DNA of 64,000 bases from Gammaproteobacteria bacterium (GCA_965237805.1 OZ250153.1:1469043-1533042); one strand, 5' to 3'; shown: positions 603 to 32,523, numbered from the stretch's first letter. Numbers and translations: made by a program. The notes: generated by a model from the sequence alone, not told the origin.

Positions 603-3641
<3,039 letters not shown>

Positions 3642-8077: not shown

Positions 8078-9019
8078 TCAGCTGCCCCAGCGGAGCTGCA
8101 CCAAGCTTTCGCTGAGCTGCCACAGTCGCTCCGCCGCTTTATCTGAGCGAGCGTAGGCTTTGGTACGGCACACTGCACGATTGCGGTAATAGCCGCCGTT
8201 GGCACTGCTCAGCGCCGCTTCGGTGCACAGCCAGACAGCGGTGTCGGCACCCTGTGCCGGGCTGTTTGTCAACGGGCTGATCAGCCACATCGCCATCCGT
8301 GCGGGCAGACTATGACCGATGATGCCGCTGTTGACCACGCCCGGTGACATGGCGTTGACCGTGATGCTACTGCCTTTGGCTCGCCGCGCCAAGGCGTGCA
8401 TGAACAGCAGGCCGCACAGCTTGGCACGGCAATAGTTGCCGATGCTGAAGTAGGGCGAGCGATCGCGCATCAGGTCATTGAAGTCTAGGGACGGAGCCAG
8501 TCGGTGGGCGAGAGAGGAGATGACGATGATGCGTGCTGGAGCTGATGCCTGTAGCCGCGGCCACAGCAGGCCGGTGAGCAGGAATGGGGCCAAGTGATTG
8601 ACCGCTATGCTGGCTTCATGGCCCTCGGCACTGCGCTGCCGGGTGGCGAATAGGGCTCCAGCGTTGTGCACTAGCACATGCAGGGCTTGCCCGCTGTCTA
8701 AATAGCCTTGGGCGGCGCGCCGTAGCGCGGACAGCGACTTGAGATCGCAGCAGAAAGCTGCGGGTCGCTGTCCAGTCTCGTCGGCGATTTGTTGCTGCAC
8801 CGCTGCGATGCGACTGGCGTTGCGGCCGCCGACCACGACTTTGGCACCGGCCCGCGCCAGCGCCAAGGCGATTTCGCGCCCAATACCGTTGGTCGCACCG
8901 GTCACGAGACAGCTCTTGCCAGCGATGTCCCAAGGAAGGCGTATCACCCCACTGGTGTCCGCTAGCTGCCCCATCACCGATTTGCCGCTTCTGGGTGGTG
9001 CTTGTTCACCAGTTGCCAC
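8078..9019 (-). CDS. Short-chain dehydrogenase/reductase (SDR) family oxidoreductase, paralog 1
   Basis: TGATNGIGREIA Rossmann motif, NAG motif and catalytic YCRAK. Confidence 0.75.
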   Translation of the reverse strand: MATGEQAPPRSGKSVMGQLADTSGVIRLPWDIAGKSCLVTGATNGIGREIALALARAGAKVVVGGRNASRIAAVQQQIADETGQRPAAFCCDLKSLSALRRAAQGYLDSGQALHVLVHNAGALFATRQRSAEGHEASIAVNHLAPFLLTGLLWPRLQASAPARIIVISSLAHRLAPSLDFNDLMRDRSPYFSIGNYCRAKLCGLLFMHALARRAKGSSITVNAMSPGVVNSGIIGHSLPARMAMWLISPLTNSPAQGADTAVWLCTEAALSSANGGYYRNRAVCRTKAYARSDKAAERLWQLSESLVQLRWGS

Positions 9020-9103: not shown

Positions 9104-10021
9104 TCAGTCGCTCCAGCGATGATCGACCAAGTCTTCGCTGGCTTGCCACAGCTGCTCTGCGATCTCGTCCGAGCGGGCATCGGCGCGGGGCTTGTGTGGG
9201 GCGCGATTGAAGTAATAGCCGCCGTTGGCAGCGCTCAGCGCAGGGTCGGTGGCCAGCCAGACGGCGGTGTCGGCACCCTGTGCCGGGGTGCGCGCAAACG
9301 GTCGGAGCAGCGCCATCATCAGGCGCCCAACCCATTGTTTTCCAGCGAGTCCGGTGGCGACCAAGCTCGGGTGCATGGCGGTGACGGTGACGCCGCTGCC
9401 CTCGATGCGTTTTGCCAAGGCGTGTGTGAATAGCAGGTTGCACAGTTTGGAGCGCCCGTAGCTCTCCATATTGAAATAGAACGCTTGCTCGCGCATCAGG
9501 TCGTCGAAATCCAGTGACTTGCTCGAGCGGTGGGCATCGGAGGCGACGATGACAATGCGCGCCGGTGCCGATTCCTTGAGTCTGGGCCACAGCATGCAGC
9601 TGAGCAGAAAAGGTGCCAAGTGGTTGATAGCCATGCTGGCCTCATAGCCGTCGGCGCTGTGTTGCCGGCGGCCGAAGACGGCACCAGCGTTGTTCATCAG
9701 CATGTGTAGTGGTCGACTACTGTCCAAATACTCGTTGGCGGCGCGGCGCACATCCGCCAGCGAGTTAAAGTCGCAGCACATCGCATCGGGGCGTTGCCCG
9801 GTCTCGTCGGCGATTTGGTCTTGCACGGTCGCGCAACGTTCGGGGCTGCGTCCACCGATGACGACTTCGGCACCGGCCTTGGCCAGTGCCAAGGCGGCGG
9901 CACGTCCGATGCCATTGGTCGCACCGGTCACAAGGCAGACCTTGCCAGCGATATCCCACGCTGCCTCGGTCGTCTGTGCCGTCTCTTTGGGCTGTTCTGT
10001 CATCCGCTGTTTTCCTCGCAA
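9104..10021 (-). CDS. SDR family oxidoreductase, paralog 2 (tandem duplicate)
   Basis: TGATNGIGRAAA, NNAG and YGRSK motifs. It is ~65% identical to the upstream SDR over the full length. Confidence 0.75.
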   Translation of the reverse strand: MRGKQRMTEQPKETAQTTEAAWDIAGKVCLVTGATNGIGRAAALALAKAGAEVVIGGRSPERCATVQDQIADETGQRPDAMCCDFNSLADVRRAANEYLDSSRPLHMLMNNAGAVFGRRQHSADGYEASMAINHLAPFLLSCMLWPRLKESAPARIVIVASDAHRSSKSLDFDDLMREQAFYFNMESYGRSKLCNLLFTHALAKRIEGSGVTVTAMHPSLVATGLAGKQWVGRLMMALLRPFARTPAQGADTAVWLATDPALSAANGGYYFNRAPHKPRADARSDEIAEQLWQASEDLVDHRWSD

Positions 10022-21479: not shown

Positions 21480-22282
21480 GTGCCCGTTTTCCGCCACACC
21501 GAGCGTCCCTGCTTGGTGCTGAACAGCCTCAAGGTCATGTACTCGACTTTGTGCGCTGTGCCGCAGCTGCGCCACTGCTTGTTACGCGATGCCTTGTTGG
21601 GGGCCTTGCTGGCTCGGCCCCGCCTCGAGGCGTATTGGGTGGTGCGCGACCCTTATCAGCGCCTGCAGTCCTGCTTCCGCGACAAATTCCACAATTGCCC
21701 CCCCCCCAAGTGGAGGGCGAGCGCAAGTCATACGCGCTGCAGATGGATCTGCTGTCCATACGGGAGCACGGCCATATGGGGAGATTTGATCTGATGCCCT
21801 TGGATGCGCTGTGGCGGCGGTGCCGCGAACTGGAATTTGAGGATTTCATCACCCTATTGCCAGAGTATTACCACATCAACCGGCATTTTTGGCCGCAGCA
21901 CTGGGAGGCGCATCCAGCGCTGTTCTACAGGCAGTGGTGTCGTCTCGCTGCGCTGCAGGCTCCTCGGTCGTGGCGCCGACTAGGGCGATTGCTTGTTGCG
22001 CTGGCATATCCGGATCGCTTCCCGCGCGTGGAACTGCGCGTCCTGCGGATGGAAAATGCCGGTGACATCGCGTTGTTGGGGCGTGCCATCGGCTACGATT
22101 TGGCATCCCTCAAGCTATGCAGCACCGCCCATTTGCAGGTAGACACCCGCTACAGCCGCCGGACGCTGGCGATTGTCAATGAGCTGTACCGCGAGGATTT
22201 CCGTCGCTTAGGCTACGCGATGTACAGCGAGCCAGCGCAGTTGGCGGCTGCAGAAAAGGCGGCGAGCACCGTCGCAGTCTAG
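21480..22282 (+). pseudogene. Sulfotransferase (Sulfotransfer_2-like) interrupted by a +/-1 frameshift at a poly-C(10) tract
   Basis: Frame A (21480-21707) encodes ...YWVVRDPYQRLQSCFRDKF (3'-PB-like motif). Frame B (21708-22282) continues to the typical ...NELYREDFRRLGY C-terminus. The join is the C10 run at 21698-21707. Confidence 0.45.
21698..21707 (+). repeat. Homopolymeric C10 tract
   Basis: Ten consecutive C residues, at the point where the sulfotransferase reading frame switches. Confidence 0.9.
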
Positions 22283-22710
22283 CTGGTGCTGTCTGTCGTA
22301 CCTGCGTCGCCGCTTGTGGCGGCGGCCTCTGTCGCCGCTAGCTCTACCGCCAAGTAGGCGCGCTTGGCCGCCCGTCCGTTGCGTTCGGCGAACCAGTCGC
22401 CGAGGCGCATCTGCCAGCCATATTTGTCTCGCAGCGCGGTGTGTGCCAGCTCTCTGTCTGCCGGGTCTGTCAAGATGCGTGCCGTCGCTGGCAACCACGG
22501 ACCGCGTAGCTTCCCCCACGCATTGCAGCTGGCAACCCGCGAGCGCGAGGAGTTGCGCAGGCGCTTGACCTTGCCAGCATTGCCAGCACTGAAGAGATAC
22601 AAACTGCCGTTGCATTCGGCAAACCACACCGGTGTGTCGACCGCCACCCCGCTTTTGCGGTAGCTGCTGAAGTTGATGAAGCGGCTGTCGCGCGGCAGCT
22701 GCAAAGTCAT
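22279..22710 (-). CDS. PNPOx-like split-barrel flavin-binding protein (PPOX class / probable flavin reductase-like)
   Basis: Start at MTLQLPRDSRFINFSSYRKSGVAVDTPVWF..., a pyridoxamine-5'-phosphate-oxidase-like fold signature. Confidence 0.5.
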   Translation of the reverse strand: MTLQLPRDSRFINFSSYRKSGVAVDTPVWFAECNGSLYLFSAGNAGKVKRLRNSSRSRVASCNAWGKLRGPWLPATARILTDPADRELAHTALRDKYGWQMRLGDWFAERNGRAAKRAYLAVELAATEAAATSGDAGTTDSTS

Positions 22711-22717
22711 CGCGGCA

Positions 22718-23992
22718 TCAGATGAAGACATCGCTGTTGTCTTGCCCCAGCAGCATGGCACCGTAGTTGCGCGCAAAACTGGTCGGGTTGTTGGCCACGT
22801 GACTGCGGCTGGTCAGCAGATCCAAATAGGCTTGCTGGATGTCGCTGCCGAGGAAGACCGAGCGCCCGCCCGCCGTCGCGATCAGGGGCTGTGCTGCTGC
22901 CAGACAGCGAGCGACCACGATGGAGGCCTGATAGCGGTAGCGCGCGCGGACATCCATCGGCATTGCGTCGTCATTTTCGACGTACTGTGCGAGCCGCTCC
23001 ATATTGCGGTGCAGCATCATTGCCAGTTCGTCGACGGTATTGCTGGCGTGGGCGAGCAGCTCCTGCGTGGCAACATCTTCTGCCAGCTTGGTGGGGTCGC
23101 CACTGTGGCGGCTTTTGGCACCGTCGATGCGCAGCTCGACGATGCGCTTGAGCAGGCTGATCGGCGTGGTGGCCACGGCACGCACAAAGATCTGCCCCCA
23201 CGGGATACGGTAGACCGGATTGTCGTGGATTTTGTAGCCGGGATTGGTCAAATTGAAGCCATCCATTTGGTGGTGGGTGCGGTACTCGGGGACAAAGCAG
23301 TCCGCGACCACGATGTCTTTGCTACCCGTGCCCTGCAAGCCCATCACGTGCCAAGTGTCGTCGATCTTGTAGTCGGAACGTGGGACTAGGAAGGTGCGGT
23401 AGTGGGTATCGCCTTCATCGAAGACGAGCCCGCCGAGCAGGGCCCATTCGCAGTGGTCGCAACCACTGGACCAGCCCCAGCGTCCGCTGAAGCGGAAGCC
23501 GTCGTCGCAGCGCTCCACCTTGCCCATTGGCGCGTAGGAAGAGGAGACCAGCGTGTCGGGGTCGTCGCTCCACACCTCTTCTTGGGCGCGCTGATCGTAG
23601 AGAGCCAACTGGAAAGGGTGGACACCGATCACGCCGCAGACCCAGCCGGTCGCAGCGCAGCTCTCGGAGATCATCAGAACGAGCTGGCCGAAATCGGCGG
23701 GCTCCAATTCCAAGCCGCCGTAGCGTTGTGGCTGGAGCAGGCGAAAATAGCCAGCTGCTTTGAGCTCGGCGATGCTTGCCGCTGGCAGCATGCGCTGCTT
23801 GCGGGCGACGTCTGAGCGTTCCTGAAACTTGGGCAAAAGCGCCTCTACTGCCTCGTAGACCGCGTGCCGGGTGGCGGCCTTTTCATCGGGGTCGCGCACT
23901 GCTGTCTTCGCCACCGTAGCCATATTGCGCCGCCTCTCTGGCGTGTTTAACTCGTAGTTTTTAATTATCACCCGGTGCTTGGGGACTGTCAA
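22718..23992 (-). CDS. Acyl-CoA-dehydrogenase-fold flavin-dependent monooxygenase (HsaA/HpaH/group-D-like oxygenase component)
   Basis: 424 aa with ACAD N/M/C domains but the monooxygenase-type substitutions (WGWSSGCDH..., C-terminal 4-helix domain), as in two-component flavin hydroxylases. Confidence 0.55.
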   Translation of the reverse strand: MTVPKHRVIIKNYELNTPERRRNMATVAKTAVRDPDEKAATRHAVYEAVEALLPKFQERSDVARKQRMLPAASIAELKAAGYFRLLQPQRYGGLELEPADFGQLVLMISESCAATGWVCGVIGVHPFQLALYDQRAQEEVWSDDPDTLVSSSYAPMGKVERCDDGFRFSGRWGWSSGCDHCEWALLGGLVFDEGDTHYRTFLVPRSDYKIDDTWHVMGLQGTGSKDIVVADCFVPEYRTHHQMDGFNLTNPGYKIHDNPVYRIPWGQIFVRAVATTPISLLKRIVELRIDGAKSRHSGDPTKLAEDVATQELLAHASNTVDELAMMLHRNMERLAQYVENDDAMPMDVRARYRYQASIVVARCLAAAQPLIATAGGRSVFLGSDIQQAYLDLLTSRSHVANNPTSFARNYGAMLLGQDNSDVFI

Positions 23993-24056
23993 TTGAAGCC
24001 GGCCGTTTGGCTCTTGCGTTACACTGGGTCTAGGCAGCTATGCGATGTGCTGAGCC

Positions 24057-26321
24057 ATGAAAGAACGTGCGCTCGATGTGCCCGACTACGAGCGTCTGCC
24101 GCTGGCGCGCTACGCCGAGCAGGCTTATTTAGACTATGCCATGTATGTGGTCTTGGATCGGGCACTGCCTTTTATAGGCGATGGCCTCAAACCGGTGCAG
24201 CGGCGCATTGTCTATGCCATGTCTGAATTGCGCCTCGCTGTAGCCGGTGCCCAATACAAGAAATCTGCCCGCACCGTCGGTGATGTCATCGGCAAGTTCC
24301 ATCCGCACGGCGATGCGGCGGTCTACGAGGCCATGGTGCTGATGGCGCAGCCTTTTGCCACCCGCTATCCACTGATCGATGGCCAAGGCAACTGGGGCGC
24401 GACCGACGAGCCGCACTCCTTTGCCGCCATGCGCTACACCGAGGCGCGCCTGACACCGATAGCTGGTCTGTTGTTGGCGGAGCTGGGGCAAGCCACCACC
24501 GCATGGACAGAGAATTTTGATGGCACCCTGCCTGAGCCCAGTGCTTTGCCAGCGCAGCTGCCGCAGCTGCTACTCAACGGTGCCACTGGCATCGCCGTCG
24601 GCATGTCCACCGATATCCCGCCGCACAACTTGCGCGAAGTCGTCGCCGCCTGCCTCACCCTGCTCGACGATCCCAAAGCTGATGTCGCGACGCTGTGTCA
24701 GCATATTTTGGGGCCGGATTTCCCCTCTGGTGCCGAATTGATCAGCTCCCCGGAAGATATCCGTCAGCTCTACCAGTGCGGCCACGGCTCGCTGAGGATG
24801 CGGGCCGTGTACAGCATTGAGGGCGACAGCATCGTCATTACCGCACTACCGCATCAAGTGTACTGCGGGCGCGTGCTGGGACAGGTGGCGGCGCAGATGG
24901 AGGCGCGCAAGCTGCCGTGGGTTGTGGATGCCCGCGACGAATCCGATCACGAGCACCCCACCCGCTTGGTCCTATTGTTGCGCAGCGCCCGGGTTGATCG
25001 AGAGCAGCTGATGTCCCATCTCTTTGCCACCACCGATCTCGAGTCCAGTTGTCGCGTCAATTTCAATGCCATCGGCCTCGACGGATGCCCCCGGATCTAC
25101 TCGCTACCGTCCTTTTTGGGCGAATGGTTGCGCTTTCGTCGCGAGTTGGTGCAGCGTCGCCTGCGTCACCGGCTCGCGCAGATCGCATCCCGTCTGCACT
25201 TGCTGGCAGGTTTCTTGATCGCCTACTCGCAGCTCGATGAGATGATCGCTTTGATTCGTAGCGCCGAGCGGCCAGCCGAGGCGCTGCGCGAGCGCTTCAC
25301 TTTGGATGAGGCGCAGGCCGAGGCGATTTTGAACCTGCGCCTGCGCCAATTGGCGCACCTTGCAGAAGATGCATTGCGTGCGGAGCAGGCTCAGCTGCTC
25401 GCCGAACAGACATCACTCCAAGCGGTACTCGGCTCCTCTCGCAAACTCAAAACTTTGATCAAAACGGAACTGCGCGCGCTCGCCGAGAAATACGGCGACG
25501 AGCGGCGCTCGCCAGTGGTGCATCGTGCGGCAGCTCAGCAGCTGAGCGAGGAGGCTGTGCTACCGGTAGAGCCGCTGACGGCGGTACTGTCGCAAAGCGG
25601 CTGGATCCGTGCGGCCCGAGGCCATGATATCGACCCGGAGGCGCTGACTTACAAGTCGGGGGATCGCTTGTTGTGTATGGTGCACAGCCGCTCGGATCGC
25701 TTGCTGATCGCGCTGGACTCCACCGGGCGCGTCTACACGGTAGCCGCTCGTGGCCTGCCCTCGGCGCGTGGGCACGGCACACCGCTGAGCAGGCTGGTGG
25801 TGCCGCCCTCCGGCGCACATTTCATCGGCATGGTCGCAGCTTGCGACGGCGGTGGGGCGTTGTTAGCATCGGATCTCGGCTCGGGATTCATCGCCCCCTG
25901 CGAGGCCTTGCTCGGCAACCGCCGGGTCGGCAAGCAGCTGTTCATCCTGCCGGACGGAGCCTCGGCGCTGATGCCCTTGGCGGTGCCGGAGGACAGCGGG
26001 GACTGGCTGGTGGCGGTCGCCAGCAGTGCTGGCCACTTGCTGCTCTTCGCGCTGAGCGAGCTGCCGCGCCTGCGCCGCGGGCGCGGCGTGCGCTTGATGG
26101 CACTGCGTGGCGACGAGCGCTTGGCGGCGGTGCAATTGTTGCCGGTGACGGCCTGTTTGCGCATCCATGCAGGCAATCGCCACTACAGCCTGACAGCGCG
26201 CGACCTACCATTGTGGCGCGGTGCCCGTGCGCGACGCGGGCGAATCTTGCCGCGTGGCTTCCGCTCGGTGCGTGGCCTCAGCGTGGCAATGCCAGCTGCT
26301 AGCGAGGTGGTCGATGCCTGA
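24057..26321 (+). CDS. parC: DNA topoisomerase IV subunit A
   Basis: Active-site Tyr region ([10 protein letters not shown]), GyrA/ParC N-terminal domain and beta-pinwheel C-terminus. 754 aa with no GyrA box, which indicates ParC. Confidence 0.85.
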
Positions 26322-27534
26322 GATCCTGCTGTTGTCAGCGAGCGGGGCGGCATCTTCGGATGCCAGCACCGCGCTGTGCCAGCTGATCGGCGAATACAGT
26401 GGGCGAGTCCTCGACATCAGTTATAGCGCGGTGCATCGCCACGCCCATCTGGGCATGGTGGTGGCCTTGCCAGAGCAGGCTGACGGTGATGCCTTGCGCG
26501 GGCGTCTACAACGGGCGGCGGAGAGTCTCGAGCTGCGTTTGGATATTCGCGGTATCACTGCCCAAGATTATCTGAGCTGGGCCATTCCAGGCGATGCGCC
26601 GAGCTATGTGTTGACGGTGTTGTCGCCGGACATCGAGGCCGGCACGCTGGCACGGGTTGCCGCCGCCGTCAGCGAGCACGGCTTTTCCATCGACCAGTTA
26701 GAGCGGCTCTCCGACCGCGTGGCGATTGAGCGCATCGACCCTTGTGCCAATATCTGTTGCTTGGAGTACAGCCTGCGCGGCACTGGCGATGCCCTGCCAT
26801 TGCGCCGCCAGCTGTTGCAGCTGGCGGGCGATCTCGGCATCGACATCGCCCTGCAACGCGATGATCTCTACCGCCGCAACCGGCGGCTGGTGGCTTTTGA
26901 TATGGATTCCACCCTGATTCAAGTCGAGGTGATCGACGAGTTGGCGCGCACCGCCGGTTGTGGCGAGGAAGTCGCGCGCATCACCACCGAGGCGATGGCT
27001 GGTGCCTGCGACTTCACCACCAGCCTGCGCCGCCGCGTGGCACTGCTCAAGGGGCTGCCCGAGTCGGTGTTGCGCGAGGTGGCCGATCGATTGCCTTTGA
27101 CCCCTGGTGCCGAACAGCTGTTGCGCACACTGAAGGCACTGGGTTACCGCACAGCGATTCTTTCCGGCGGTTTTGAGCTTTTTGGCGAGCGCTTGCGCAC
27201 CCAGCTCGGCATCGATCACCTGCGTGCTAATCGCCTTGAATGGGACGGCGATCGCCTGAGTGGTCGGGTGCTGGATCCGGTCATCGACGGTGAGGGCAAA
27301 GCACAGCTGCTACGCGAATTGGCCACGCACGAGAATGTCGCGCTCGAACAGGTCATCGCTGTCGGCGACGGTGCCAACGACTTGCCGATGCTGAGCATCG
27401 CCGGGCTCGGCATCGCCTTCCGCGCCAAGCCCTTGGTTGCGCGTGAAGCCGGTCATTCTCTGTCCACTTGCGGGCTCGACGCCATTCTCTATCTGTTGGG
27501 GCTCAGGGCAGCCCAAGCTTTGCCCGTCAGCTGA
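26314..27534 (+). CDS. serB: Phosphoserine phosphatase with N-terminal ACT-like domains
   Basis: HAD motifs (FDMDSTLIQ..., GDGANDLPM). The ATG at 26314 overlaps the parC stop by 8 nt. Confidence 0.8.
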
Positions 27535-27657
27535 TGGTGGCGGCGCTTTGGCGCCATCGCCGGGGTTGTCTGGTGGCGTTCACAGGCGGCAAAAGGCTAT
27601 AATCTGCCGTGTTTTGCGTCCCGCCGTGATGGTCGGGATCGTCTGGCTGGTGGCAGA

Positions 27658-27730
27658 GGGCGCGTAGCTCAGGGGGAGAGCGCTGCTTTCACACGGCAGA
27701 GGTCGCTGGTTCAATCCCAGCCGCGCCCAC
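27658..27730 (+). tRNA. tRNA-Val (anticodon CAC)
   Basis: Manual cloverleaf: acceptor GGGCGCG/CGCGCCC, D-arm GCTC/GAGC, anticodon arm CTGCT-TTCACAC-GGCAG, T-arm GCTGG-TTCAATC-CCAGC, discriminator A. No encoded CCA. Confidence 0.7.
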
Positions 27731-27740
27731 GGCTCCAGCT

Positions 27741-27810
27741 GCTGATTCCATTTTCCATGTTCGACGTGGCATCCGCTTCGATACCGGTGCTGAGCACCCG
27801 ATGGCACGAG
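27741..27810. repeat. ~50-70 bp imperfect copy of an internal ctpA segment, 10 bp downstream of tRNA-Val
   Basis: gctgattccatttYccRtgttcgacgtgg...ttcgataccggtg is shared with 28178-28250, which lies inside ctpA and encodes ...HVEHGKWNQ. Identity is ~85% over ~50 bp. Confidence 0.7.
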
Positions 27811-27965
27811 CGGGGGTGTGGCGGGGAACATCTATACGGGCCCGATACCCACCGACGTGCACCGACAGGGATCGGGCGGATCTTTGAGGCAGTGTCGGTG
27901 CAATGCCGACACCAATTTGTCTGGTGGCAGCTCCGGTTCGTTGTCTACGGGCCGCGCCTGTGCGC

Positions 27966-29294
27966 TTATTGCGGTGGTAGCTTGCGGGTGGGGGCGAAGG
28001 TTTGGGACAAGTCCATGCCACGCAATATCAGCAAGGCCGCATGCAGCTGATAGTCCTCGCGGGCCACGTGATCCAGCTGGGGGGACGGGGATACTGGCAC
28101 TTTGCCATCAGCGGTGGTGTCGGGTGGCGGCAGATGGCCGGGCAGATCTTGCTCGCGGAGGAACGACGGTAGTGGTCGCTGATTCCATTTCCCGTGTTCG
28201 ACGTGGATATCCGGTTCGATACCGGTGGCTTGGATCGACCGCCCGTTGGGCGTGTAGTAGAGCGCGGTGGTCATTTTCAGCGCCTGACCCTGCGGCAGTG
28301 GGATGATTGATTGCACCGAGCCCTTGCCGAAGCTTTGGTTCCCGACCAACAACGCACGTCGACGGTCTTGCAGCGCTCCAGCCACCACTTCCGCCGCCGA
28401 GGCGGTGCCCGCGTTGATCAACACGACAATGGGCAGGCCATGGCTTAGATCGCCGCGGCTGGCGCGGATTATTTCCAGCGACTTGCCGCCGCGCCCGCGA
28501 GTAGAGACGATATCACCACCATCCAGCAACAGATCGGCCACTGCCACCGCTGCTGCCATCAGTCCACCGGGGTTGTCGCGCAGATCCAGCACCATACCGC
28601 GTGCTTTGTGCGCATCATTGTCGAGCTCGACCCGCAGGATCTTGTGCATCTCTGCCGCCGTATCGTTCTGAAAGCGCGCGATGCGCAGGTAGACATGCTC
28701 CGGTGTCGGGAAGCTGTGCTGCACACTGCGGATTTTCACCACCTCACGCTGCAGCTCGAATGACAGGGGATCCACGACGCCCCGGCGCTGGATTGAGAGC
28801 TGCACCATGCTGCCGGGAGGGCCGCGCAGTAGCGCGGATGCGCGCTCGAAGCGCAGCCGATCGATCGGCTGCTTGTCGATGGCGATGATGCGGTCACCGC
28901 TCTTGATGCCGGCTCGTGCGGCCGGTGTGTCGTCGATCGGGGCGATGATCAGCAGCTTGCCGTCCCGCCATTCGATTTCGATACCGATGCCGCCAAAACG
29001 ACCCTCGGTGTCGATTTGCAGCTCGCGCCGCTCCTCTTTGTTCAGATAAGCCGAGTGCGGATCCAAACCGTCCAACATGCCGCGAATAGCGTTTTCTAGC
29101 AGCTGGGCATCCGAGCTCTCATACAGATAGTTGCGCTGAATTTGGTGGAAAGCGAATGAGAAGAGCTTCAGCTCCTCCAGCGGCACCTTGGGATACCTGT
29201 CTGCGGCCTGTGCGACGGCGGTGTTAAGGCACAGTGCCAGCGCGATGCTCAAGCCGTTGCAGACACTATATTTTCGCATGATGATAGCTGGCAC
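27966..29294 (-). CDS. ctpA: Carboxyl-terminal processing protease (S41, PDZ-containing)
   Basis: Signal peptide, PDZ domain (GDRIIAIDKQPI) and the S41 catalytic Ser/Lys region (GTASAAEV...). Confidence 0.8.
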   Translation of the reverse strand: MPAIIMRKYSVCNGLSIALALCLNTAVAQAADRYPKVPLEELKLFSFAFHQIQRNYLYESSDAQLLENAIRGMLDGLDPHSAYLNKEERRELQIDTEGRFGGIGIEIEWRDGKLLIIAPIDDTPAARAGIKSGDRIIAIDKQPIDRLRFERASALLRGPPGSMVQLSIQRRGVVDPLSFELQREVVKIRSVQHSFPTPEHVYLRIARFQNDTAAEMHKILRVELDNDAHKARGMVLDLRDNPGGLMAAAVAVADLLLDGGDIVSTRGRGGKSLEIIRASRGDLSHGLPIVVLINAGTASAAEVVAGALQDRRRALLVGNQSFGKGSVQSIIPLPQGQALKMTTALYYTPNGRSIQATGIEPDIHVEHGKWNQRPLPSFLREQDLPGHLPPPDTTADGKVPVSPSPQLDHVAREDYQLHAALLILRGMDLSQTFAPTRKLPPQ

Positions 29295-29327
29295 GACCAG
29301 CAGCTCTATAGCCGGGAAATGATTATA

Positions 29328-30458
29328 TCAATCTGACTCAAACCACTGCAGGGGGTTGCGCGGTTTGCCTTGGTGGCGCAATTCGAAGTACAGGCCGCTG
29401 TTGCGTTGGCCGCCGCTACGCCCTACCGTGGCGATGGTCTCGGCGCTGTCCACCTCGTCGCCGACCGATCGGAGTAGGCTTTGGTTGTTGCCGTAGACCG
29501 ACAGGTAGCCCGCACCGTGATCCAAGATCATCAGCAGGCCCATATCGGCGAAGGATTGGGCGAATACCACCCTGCCAGCGTGTAAGGCGCGCACTGGGGT
29601 ACCATCGGGCGCGTCGATACGGATACCGCGCCAGCGCAACATGCCGCCAGCGCGGCGGGTGCCGAAGTGCTTGCTGATGGTGCCCTTCACCGGGCGCGGC
29701 AAGCGGTGGCGCAGCTTGGCGATGCTGGAGCGGCGTGGCGGCAGCTGCTGTTGCACACCCTCCAGCAGCTCCTGCAGCTGCCGCTGCTCGCGCTCGAGCT
29801 GCTTTAGCCGCTTGTTGCGGCTGAGCAGGGTGCCGTCCACTGCCCCCAGTGCAGCCCGATGCTTGGTGATGAGCTTTTGCAATTTGCCGCGTTGCTCACG
29901 CTGTATAGCACGGCGACTGCTGATGTGTTGTGCCAGCTGGCGGCTCTGCTGCTCGGCGGCGCGCAGCTGCCCGATGCTGGTGCGAAAGCGGTCGATGCGC
30001 TGGTGTCGCAAGCTGCTGAGCCGGCGGTGGTAGTAGTGTAGGCGCACGAGGCGGCGCGGGGTTTCGGCATTGAGCAACAGCCGCAGTTGCTCGCCGGGAC
30101 CGATACGGTGCAGGTGGCGCATGATATCGCGCATTTGGCCGCGTTGCGTGGCGATGTGCCGCTCCAGCGCTTCGATGTTGTCGTGCAACAGGCGCTGATC
30201 TTCCGCCTGCTTGGCCAGCGAGCTGCGGCTTTGACGCAGGGTGGTGGCACTGTGGTCGATCGTGCGCTCAATGGTGTCGAGCTGTTGCTGTAGAGCCGAG
30301 CGTTCTCCTTGGCGCTTGCTGATATCAGTTTGCAACTCGGCGATGCCATCTTGCAGGGACTGCAGCTGGCGCAGCTGTTCCGCGCTGTGCTGTGCGGCTG
30401 CTGTGCTGGCCGCGAGTAACAGCGCGGGTAACAGCGCCGCAGACAGGCGCTTAGTCAT
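29328..30458 (-). CDS. envC: Murein hydrolase activator EnvC-like (coiled-coil + degenerate M23/LytM domain)
   Basis: Signal peptide, long coiled coil, C-terminal LytM domain (ILDHGAGYLSVYGNN...). It is in the conserved gpmI-envC-ctpA arrangement. Confidence 0.7.
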   Translation of the reverse strand: MTKRLSAALLPALLLAASTAAAQHSAEQLRQLQSLQDGIAELQTDISKRQGERSALQQQLDTIERTIDHSATTLRQSRSSLAKQAEDQRLLHDNIEALERHIATQRGQMRDIMRHLHRIGPGEQLRLLLNAETPRRLVRLHYYHRRLSSLRHQRIDRFRTSIGQLRAAEQQSRQLAQHISSRRAIQREQRGKLQKLITKHRAALGAVDGTLLSRNKRLKQLEREQRQLQELLEGVQQQLPPRRSSIAKLRHRLPRPVKGTISKHFGTRRAGGMLRWRGIRIDAPDGTPVRALHAGRVVFAQSFADMGLLMILDHGAGYLSVYGNNQSLLRSVGDEVDSAETIATVGRSGGQRNSGLYFELRHQGKPRNPLQWFESD

Positions 30459-30470
30459 GCGATATCCGCA

Positions 30471-32021
30471 TCAGGCATCGGCAAATAGGGGACGTCCACT
30501 CATCTCGGCCGGGGGCTCTAGGCCAAGCAACCACAGCGCCGTGGGAGCCACATCGGCGAGCGAGCCGTGGGGCTGTTCCCAGTCGCCGTTGGCAGTCGCC
30601 GGGCGCAGCTGCCGCGGCCCGGCGTAGAGCAGTGGTACTGGCCCCAGCGTGTGGGCGGTATGGGTGCCGCCGCCGGGTGCCGACATGCTCTCGCAGTTGC
30701 CGTGATCCGCGGTGATCAGGCAGTGACTGCCGCTGGCGTCGATCGCCTCGAGCAGCTGTCCCAACGCCCGGTCGATGCATTCCACCGCCGCCACGGCGGC
30801 ATCGAGCTTGCCGGTATGGCCGACCATATCGCCATTGGCGTAGTTGCAGATCAGCACATCGTGTCGACCGGCCGCGATCGCATCGACCAATTTCCGGCTC
30901 AGCTCGGGCGCACTCATCTCTGGTTGCAAATCATAAGTGGCGACTTTGGGGGAGGGAACCAACTGCCGTTCTTCACCCGGGAAAGCGGCCTCGCGTCCGC
31001 CGTTCAGAAAATAGGTGACATGCGCGAATTTCTCGGTTTCGGCAAGGCGCAGCTGGCGCAGCTGGTGTTGAGCCAAGCAGGCTCCCAAGGTGTTCTCCGG
31101 TTGCTCGGATCGAAAAGCGACCGCCGCCGGTAGCGTGTCGTCGTAGAGTGTGGCGGTGACAAAGCATCCCGCTCGCAATGCCGTCTGTCCAGGGCGCGGA
31201 AAATGATCGAATTGCTCATCGAGCAGGGCGTGGCTCAGCTGGCGGGCGCGGTCGGCGCGAAAATTCATGAACAGCATGCTGTCGGTGACGCCGATGGCTC
31301 GAGCCACACCGATTGTGGTCGGCAGCACGAACTCGTCATCTTCGCCGCGCTGGTAGGCGGCTTCGAGCGCTGTTTCGGCGCTGTCGGCGCACTGCTCGGC
31401 CAGTCCTGCCACCAGTCGCCAAGCCCGTTCGGTGCGCTCCCAGCGTCGATCCCGATCCATCGCGTAATAGCGCCCGACGACGCTGGCAATGCGCGCCTGA
31501 CCGCCGCTGAGCTGGCACTGTCGCTCCAGCTCGGCCAGCGAGGTGGCGGCGCAGCGCGGCGCGGTGTCGCGACCGTCAAGAAAGGCGTGGATCTGCACTT
31601 GGGCACCGCGCTCCAAGGCTAGCTGCAGGGCGGCGTGCAGGTGGCGTTCGTGGCTGTGCACCCCGCCGGGTGACAGCAGGCCGAGCAGATGTACTGCGCC
31701 GCCGTCGTCGCGAGCTCGGTCGATCGCCTCGCACAGCACTTGGCAACGGGAAAAAACACCATTTTCCAGCGCTTGGTCAATCTGTGCCAGCTGCTGTGGG
31801 AGCACCCGCCCGGCCCCGATGCAGCTGTGTCCGACTTCAGAGTTTCCCATTTGACCCGCGGGCAGGCCGACGGCGGGGCCGGAACATGACAGCAGGCGTT
31901 TGGGTGCGGTGCGCCACAGGCGATCGTAGACTGGAGTGTGGGCGATGGCGATGGCATTGCCCTCGCGCTGCTCGCTGTGCCCCCAGCCGTCGAGCACGAT
32001 CAACGCCAACTGTGTCGCCAT
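30471..32021 (-). CDS. gpmI: 2,3-bisphosphoglycerate-independent phosphoglycerate mutase
   Basis: MATQLALIVLDGWGH..., iPGM Mn-binding motifs and the catalytic Ser region. Confidence 0.9.
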   Translation of the reverse strand: MATQLALIVLDGWGHSEQREGNAIAIAHTPVYDRLWRTAPKRLLSCSGPAVGLPAGQMGNSEVGHSCIGAGRVLPQQLAQIDQALENGVFSRCQVLCEAIDRARDDGGAVHLLGLLSPGGVHSHERHLHAALQLALERGAQVQIHAFLDGRDTAPRCAATSLAELERQCQLSGGQARIASVVGRYYAMDRDRRWERTERAWRLVAGLAEQCADSAETALEAAYQRGEDDEFVLPTTIGVARAIGVTDSMLFMNFRADRARQLSHALLDEQFDHFPRPGQTALRAGCFVTATLYDDTLPAAVAFRSEQPENTLGACLAQHQLRQLRLAETEKFAHVTYFLNGGREAAFPGEERQLVPSPKVATYDLQPEMSAPELSRKLVDAIAAGRHDVLICNYANGDMVGHTGKLDAAVAAVECIDRALGQLLEAIDASGSHCLITADHGNCESMSAPGGGTHTAHTLGPVPLLYAGPRQLRPATANGDWEQPHGSLADVAPTALWLLGLEPPAEMSGRPLFADA

Positions 32022-32100
32022 TCTTGGGTTCCGTTTACGCTCAGGCTAAACTGTTATTTTACGCGCCGCAACGGCGGCATTCTGCGCACGGTTCTCGGCT

Positions 32101-32523
32101 ATGTCTACATTCAGTGCCTTCGCTGTGCAGCAATGGCCGTTATTTGCGGCATTGTGCCTGCTGCTCGCGTTGTTGTGGCGGCACGAGAGCCGCAGTGGTG
32201 GCCCGGCCATTTCGCCCCATCTGTTGACCGTGTTGGTCAATGGCGAAAGCGCCCGCATGATCGACCTGCGTCCGGCGGCCGACTTTGCGGCTGCCCATAT
32301 CGCTGGTGCCGAGAACATCCCGTGGAGCGATTTCCAAAGCCGCCTGCCCGAGCTGCAGCGCGACACTAGCACACCGTTGGTGCTGGTCTGCGCCATGGGG
32401 CAACAGTCCCCGTCGGCGGTGCGGCAGCTGCGCGCCGCCGAGTTCAAGTCGCTCTCCCGCCTCGGCGGGGGCATTGCCGAATGGCGACACCAGCGCTATC
32501 CGTTGGTGAGCGCCAAGCGCTGA
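32101..32523 (+). CDS. Rhodanese-domain protein (YibN/GlpE-like), N-terminal TM anchor
   Basis: Single rhodanese domain with active-site Cys (LVCAMGQQS). It is divergent from gpmI, as yibN is in E. coli. Confidence 0.6.
   Translation: MSTFSAFAVQQWPLFAALCLLLALLWRHESRSGGPAISPHLLTVLVNGESARMIDLRPAADFAAAHIAGAENIPWSDFQSRLPELQRDTSTPLVLVCAMGQQSPSAVRQLRAAEFKSLSRLGGGIAEWRHQRYPLVSAKR

Follow-up and report, generated by a model that had tools for sequence, protein, structure and literature searches.

Two ctpA-derived relics in the spacer between ctpA and tRNA-Val of a gammaproteobacterium, possible remnants of a second gene copy

Remnants of genes in the spacers between intact genes are known from deletion-biased, shrinking genomes such as those of Rickettsia, Mycobacterium leprae and insect endosymbionts. 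Genes for tRNA are common integration sites, and the external transcribed spacers of tRNA transcripts can be functional RNAs, as is the case for the E. coli 3′ETS-leuZ. Short stretches of ectopic sequence can also be inserted by SPDIR (short-patch double illegitimate recombination), a mechanism that was documented in Acinetobacter (bioRxiv 10.1101/2023.11.22.568220). The locus described here, a 235-nt spacer between the gene for the carboxy-terminal processing protease CtpA and tRNA-Val, shares features with several of these systems.

Like spacer pseudogene relics, it contains short coding islands, in order and co-oriented, within a spacer that is otherwise unassignable; their frame is destroyed and they are absent from a syntenic relative. 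Unlike in those relics, the islands would come from an additional copy of a gene that is still live just upstream, only about 100 nt survive, and gene conversion is suggested by the fact that one island is far closer to the live gene than its partner is. A head-to-tail relic and a mosaic of similarity (90% versus 56%) are also reminiscent of tandem duplication and decay with concerted evolution, of which the same DNA offers an intact counterpart in a pair of SDR genes. Unlike for converted tandem paralogues, conversion at this locus is deduced from two 50-nt samples only, and relatives with an intact second copy are not known. The likeness to SPDIR or other templated patches lies in the presence of tens of nucleotides from an ectopic locus at an unrelated site, possibly at microhomologies; unlike those patches, there are two here, collinear and co-oriented, of one gene, and for one of these the resident gene was not the template. 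What resembles the attL/attR sites of tRNA-targeting elements is the presence of a direct repeat of which one copy adjoins the 3′-end of a tRNA gene. Unlike attL/attR, the repeat is not tRNA sequence, no foreign DNA is flanked, no integrase is found, and the site looks unoccupied by synteny.

The window, that is, the whole stretch of DNA that was analysed, is 64 kb long, and all coordinates are counted from its first letter. The features of the locus are collected in Table 1. The ctpA open reading frame has 437–442 amino acids, depending on whether the start is the ATG at 29279, as in the database protein (P0001), or the GTG at 29294, as chosen by the ORF tool; the stop codon occupies 27966–27968. 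Its product matches Pfam Peptidase_S41 (PF03572) with an E value of 2e-50, as well as PDZ families and a CtpB_N-like domain, and thus shows the combination of S41 and PDZ domains of the CtpA/Prc family, for which a protein search returned thousands of homologues. The spacer between ctpA and tRNA-Val extends from 27731 to 27965. Its first 10 nt may be the retained native 3′ trailer of the tRNA, as suggested by the alignment of CGGCTCCAGCTGC in the window with CGGTTGGCTCAGTTGC in the nearest relative, a stretch too short for statistics.

Table 1. Features of the ctpA–tRNA-Val locus, with coordinates in the window
Feature	Position	Strand	Remarks
tRNA-Val, anticodon CAC	27658-27729/27730	+	ARAGORN; Rfam tRNA 65.7 bits; convergent with ctpA
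Putative native tRNA 3′ trailer between tRNA and 3′ relic	27731-27740	+	weak alignment with the L001 bases just after the tRNA
psi-ctpA 3′ fragment (3′ relic)	27741-27789	-	decayed copy of the ctpA codons for TGIEPDIHVEHGKWNQ; 1-nt deletion (frameshift) and 4 substitutions
Spacer stretch between the relics	27790-27891	.	no source found in the window; no Rfam match
Hairpin GTGTCGGTG-CAA-TGCCGACAC, then CAATTTGTCT	27892-27912	+	terminator-like scan match
psi-ctpA 5′ fragment (5′ relic)	27913-27962	-	relic of codons that closely follow the signal peptide; starts 3 nt past the ctpA stop
Live ctpA	27966-29279	-	S41 carboxy-terminal processing protease with PDZ domain
Source/partner segment within ctpA	28178-28227	-	encodes TGIEPDIHVEHGKWNQ, end of the S41 domain
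ctpA segment orthologous to the 5′ relic	29169-29218	-	30/50 identical to L001, 28/50 (56%) to the relic

In a search with the CtpA protein among 5.8 billion sequences, the only match above 52% identity, apart from the gene itself, was a relative at 66%. This nearest relative (P0002/P0121) is represented by two assemblies, L001 (ENA ERZ23490334, scaffold_421) and L002 (NCBI GCA_014238345.1). Closer relatives were not found by a peptide-pattern scan of GTDB genomes or by exact-pattern scans of genome and metagenome contigs. The gene order gpmI–M23–ctpA–tRNA-Val–serB–parC is common to the window and L001, and synteny is identical across 22,020–32,523. The proteins encoded in the flanks are 75–80% identical, CtpA and the M23 peptidase being the products of the faster-evolving genes of the region, and the ctpA of the window is collinear with that of L001 along nt 40–1200. 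The tRNA-Val sequences have a single aligned difference and are placed in the same way relative to serB and ctpA. The spacer between tRNA-Val and ctpA is 72 nt long in L001 and L002, and it includes neither of the relics found in the window. Local alignment of the L001 spacer with its own ctpA gave a score that was equaled by 144 of 500 shuffles, and alignment with the ctpA of the window was also at chance level. An older copy present in the relative too was considered, with the L001 trailer sequence CAGTTGCCCACTCC set against CAGCTGCCACTGCC of its own ctpA, and was dropped because that alignment is at chance level. The 70 C-terminal residues of the CtpA of the window, located past the genic copy of the repeat, are homologous to those of L001 (LPGHLPPP, QLHAALL.L.GM), and therefore the tail of ctpA is native rather than brought by an insertion.

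A segment of ctpA is repeated beside tRNA-Val. The spacer copy and the genic copy are identical at 45 of 50 aligned columns (90%) with one 1-nt gap, a similarity far above chance (E ~1e-9 to 1e-10; in blastn searches of the 64-kb window E was 3e-9 to 1e-10, and it was 2e-10 when the query was the whole gene). A previous sequence-only reading of this DNA had described the fragment as a duplication of ~50 bp with ~85% identity. The repeat is real and its identity is slightly higher than that figure; the spacer copy begins 11 nt after tRNA-Val (10 bp had been given) and ends 176 nt beyond the ctpA stop (~170 bp had been given). A weak extension to 27810 proposed in the same reading is at chance level, the similarity ending sharply at about 27790. 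The comparison of the window with itself, suggested there as a check, showed the repeat and no other of this kind; the rest consisted of the SDR tandem pair, sigma-factor motifs and chance-level matches. A pattern made from the 29-nt core of the repeat occurs exactly 2 times in the window and 0 times in 100 shuffles.

Compared with the genic copy, the spacer copy has the 1-nt deletion, a CCG>GCG change, a T>G change beside the deletion and, at third positions, two further changes. Because it encodes the GIEPDI motif, which the family conserves, we identify the genic copy as the original. When the differences were polarized using L001, at least 3 of the 5 had arisen in the spacer copy and no more than one in ctpA, a substitution pattern that reads as the decay of an unselected copy. 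The 3′ relic also carries derived states of the ctpA of the window that are absent in L001, namely His, Lys and an extra Asn codon. An assembly artefact is unlikely as the source of the repeat because the copies differ at 5 positions and their flanks are unrelated.

A second ctpA-derived piece, 27913–27962, had been missed in the sequence-only reading, and it shifts the picture from a stray patch to what may be the remnants of a whole extra gene copy. It was found by aligning the spacer of the window to the ctpA gene of L001, where it matches nt 107–156 at 38 of 50 positions (76%) without gaps. Its ungapped score of 26 is about 10 standard deviations higher than expected from 524 real tiles of 235 nt cut from the window, whose scores had a mean of 11.5, an sd of 1.4 and a maximum of 20. 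The match is a reciprocal best one: the L001 segment finds the 5′ relic as its best blastn match in the whole window (E 9e-7 to 4e-5), and when the spacer is compared with all 10.7 kb of the L001 locus, that ctpA segment is its best match (E 3e-7 to 1e-5). With the full L001 ctpA as the query, the E value of the 5′ relic was 1.3e-5. In translation the relic reads ..RPVDNEPELPPDKL, and the equivalent region of the L001 CtpA reads ..RAADHEPELPLDEL. The protein-level search was not significant (tblastn E = 1.3), the evidence being at the nucleotide level only, and the family HMM applied to the six-frame translation detected neither relic, since both are too short. We also considered whether the 5′ relic continues into the final ctpA codons, where ‘TTAISAQA’, read in a different frame, can be compared with ‘NTAVAQA’ of the signal peptide. 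This continuation was discarded; it needs indels, and neither blastn nor MAFFT supports it.

About 100 of the 235 nt of the spacer can be assigned to ctpA. The 123 nt at 27790–27912 match nothing else in the window by blastn. Further ctpA fragments were sought in 27791–27912 by collinear chaining against both ctpA genes, and 32 to 102 of 300 shuffles scored as well. A search of the spacer against Rfam found no known RNA family apart from the tRNA. The hairpin noticed in the sequence-only reading does exist and has the perfect 7-bp stem attributed to it, at a position shifted by 1 nt (27892–27912 rather than 27893–27913). Its 7 perfect pairs can be extended by G-U pairs, and on the + strand it has a ΔG of −16.1 kcal/mol (z −2.6); on the − strand the ΔG is −12.1 kcal/mol and there is no U tract. 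It is the one match of a terminator-like scan in this region, the same number as shuffles give, and it may be a weak intrinsic terminator of the tRNA-Val transcript. As a whole, the trailer of tRNA-Val folds no better than shuffled sequences (z −0.06).

The two relics have conflicting histories. In the 3′ segment, the relic is identical to its own ctpA at 45 of 50 positions and to L001 at ~67%, the latter as a hand count from codon rows. In the 5′ segment, the relic is identical to L001 at 38 of 50 positions and to its own ctpA at 28 of 50, while the two live genes share 30 of 50. Thus, the 3′ relic groups with the ctpA of the window and the 5′ relic with the gene of L001, and no single history seems to be consistent with both. 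Identity between the window and L001 genomes at 4-fold degenerate sites is 0.47–0.58, so a sequence that had been neutral since the split would be expected to be far below 76% identical to L001. Because the 5′ island is 76% identical to L001 despite this level of divergence, and despite a spacer between serB and tRNA-Val that aligns only at the putative −10 box, it must have belonged to a gene under selection until rather recently. Had there been a single, recent partial duplication that was dead on arrival, the 5′ island should be at least ~80% identical to the live gene, which is not seen. Such an event cannot explain both islands, and therefore an extra step is needed. It is possible that a long-lived second copy had its 3′ part homogenized with the live gene by gene conversion before decaying; it is also possible that the N-terminal linker of the live gene changed unusually fast, or that two separate events of illegitimate recombination took place. 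The mosaic similarity points to gene conversion or to two events.

Both islands are derived from ctpA, co-oriented, collinear, non-coding and absent from the nearest relative. They lie on the − strand with the 5′ piece preceding the 3′ piece as one moves downstream of the ctpA stop, which is their order in the gene. Neither can be coding, because the 3′ island has a 1-nt deletion and the frame of the 5′ island runs into a TAG in the spacer; the 5′ island has no start codon and the 3′ copy has no ORF. On balance, we favor with modest confidence the interpretation that the spacer is the nearly erased remnant of one second, tandem copy of ctpA. This copy would have been located directly downstream of the live gene in head-to-tail arrangement, either as a duplicate or as a displaced older allele. 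Deletions would then have taken out ~1 kb of it, leaving the 5′ island (27962–27913, codons ~37–52 in L001 numbering) and the 3′ island (27789–27741, codons ~351–366). Deletions reaching the tRNA or its processing signals were presumably selected against, and the 3′ island ends 11 nt short of the tRNA. The 3′ island could have been refreshed by gene conversion between the copies, or it could be the product of a later event. We infer the origin of both islands in one former gene copy, as well as the deletion and conversion steps, from a structure seen in one genome, in which no intermediate stages are visible. Residual similarity along the rest of the former gene, as expected for a pseudogene relic, was not significant in 27791–27912. 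The presence of the SDR pair in the same window counts in favor of the second-copy interpretation, since it indicates that tandem gene duplicates exist in this genome. The relics themselves would be neutral debris and we propose no function for them.

Similarity by chance was rejected for both relics on the basis of the E values, the shuffles and the null built from real sequence. A dispersed repeat or MITE was also discarded: the sequence of the 3′ relic occurs only twice in the window, and the other repeats found there are paralogous genes or at chance level. Instead of a decayed gene copy, the spacer could have received two independent short templated insertions by illegitimate recombination, through template switching during replication or through SPDIR, a process that incorporates ectopic single strands after their annealing at microhomologies. 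In this case the resident ctpA, 437 nt away, would recently have served as the template of the 3′ patch, and the 5′ patch would either be older or stem from a relative's DNA. Islands of ~50 nt each with sharp edges are in agreement with such a process, which has a documented precedent in SPDIR (bioRxiv 10.1101/2023.11.22.568220), and two events are in keeping with how unequally the islands have diverged from the live gene (10% versus 44%). In addition, GCTG is common to the left edge of the 3′ island and the apparent native trailer CAGCTGC, a possible microhomology as judged from the highly diverged L001 trailer. However, the junction microhomologies rest on a surmised recipient sequence, the present ctpA cannot have templated the 5′ island (28/50), and the insertion of two patches of one gene into the same 235-nt spacer, in the orientation and order of the gene, would be a coincidence. 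We consider that two independent insertions are a rather unlikely alternative to the decay of a second copy.

The location of the 3′ relic had led the sequence-only reading to regard it as a typical scar of site-specific integration or excision, or of illegitimate recombination. In the broad sense, as debris of recombination or duplication, this description is appropriate; the site-specific part of it is unsupported, as there is no repeat of the tRNA 3′-end in the window, no foreign DNA and no integrase. According to this explanation a mobile element targeted tRNA-Val and the ctpA fragment is an att-like duplication, and the frequent use of tRNA genes as targets, together with the 11 nt that separate the copy from the 3′-end of the tRNA, speak for it. 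But the 22-nt 3′ half of tRNA-Val occurs once in the 64 kb, even when 3 mismatches are allowed, the repeat is ctpA coding sequence and not tRNA sequence, the DNA between the copies is the native tail of ctpA conserved in L001 plus spacer, and the 5′ relic is left unexplained. The occupied integration site that had been suggested as a thing to look for in related genomes was not found: in L001 the gene order is unchanged and neither an integrase nor an island is present, synteny is identical across the region given above, and the site is not occupied by an island because L001 and L002 keep this order with a 72-nt spacer. An integration scar is thus barely credible. A functional explanation, which is compatible with an origin as a relic, is that the 49-nt stretch in the 3′ trailer of tRNA-Val acts as an antisense RNA against the ctpA mRNA, the transcript ending at the 27892–27912 hairpin. 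The primary transcripts of tRNA-Val may carry 49 nt of ctpA antisense because the 3′ island sits in the trailer upstream of the only terminator-like hairpin, which is on the + strand. By construction, the + strand past the tRNA is complementary to the ctpA mRNA at 45 of 50 positions, and 3′ETS-leuZ of E. coli provides a precedent for functional tRNA spacers. Nevertheless, the stretch is absent from the only relative and hence shows no conservation, the substitutions look like neutral decay, the trailer is not unusually structured (z −0.06), and the U tract is weak, with as many terminator matches in shuffles; we regard an antisense role as highly improbable. If it were true, expression of the periplasmic CtpA would be coupled to the transcription of a tRNA, and with it to growth rate, and the locus would exemplify a newly born tRNA-spacer regulator made from a pseudogene fragment, which would be of wider interest for how regulatory RNA arises.

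If the spacer is the remnant of a second copy, a poorly sampled gammaproteobacterial lineage, whose nearest known CtpA is 66% identical, has kept in it the record of a ctpA copy that was lost. The find would be ordinary genome debris, another case of the well-known spacer pseudogene relic, and it matters little beyond annotation. For annotation, att repeats and synteny should be checked before a gene fragment located beside a tRNA is called an integration scar. The two relics are also a small and clean case of conflicting histories within what may be one pseudogene, with gene conversion or repeated illegitimate recombination as the suggested explanation.

Some other characteristics of the region were observed. 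In the spacer between serB and tRNA-Val, the only element conserved between the window and L001 is AAGGCTATAAT (27590–27602 in the window, 4943–4955 in L001). It lies ~55 nt upstream of tRNA-Val and is likely the −10 box of the promoter of this tRNA; a consensus promoter scan made no call at this element for want of a −35. The motif (T)GTCTGGTGGC / TGGCTGGTGGCAG is present three times within 370 nt around tRNA-Val, at 27566–27577, 27644–27656 and 27917–27930 on the + strand. The middle copy (27644–27656) includes GCTGGTGG, the E. coli Chi octamer, and every pair of copies alone is at chance level (blastn E ~0.7). Within ctpA, 28841–28884 is an imperfect 44-nt palindrome with overlapping 24-nt arms that are 79% complementary (opposite-strand self-match, E 1e-4).

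The longest ORF of serB starts with a GTG at 26221, and its first 101 nt (26221–26321) are shared with the end of parC. Since the called serB and parC genes overlap by only 14 nt in L001, the true serB start is probably further downstream. The M23 (EnvC-like) peptidase gene at 29328–30458 is 50–65% identical to its L001 counterpart at 2342–3362, compared with 75–80% for the flanking housekeeping genes. It was called with 155 amino acids in L001 and 370 in L002, and the L001 scaffold may have a frameshift or a gap at this point. In a more distant relative (NCBI GCA_947258875.1, L003 4001–6158, compared with 27658–29294 of the window), whose CtpA is 49% identical, the gene that follows ctpA encodes a polysaccharide deacetylase, and tRNA-Val, serB and parC are not found there. 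The 3′-end of ctpA is therefore a breakpoint of evolutionary rearrangement in the lineage to which the window and L001 belong. The two SDR genes, at 8078–9019 and 9104–10021 on the − strand, are paralogues with Pfam adh_short matches of ~1e-30 each and stretches of 73–81% identity at a 1026-nt spacing; they are tandem duplicates that were retained in this genome.
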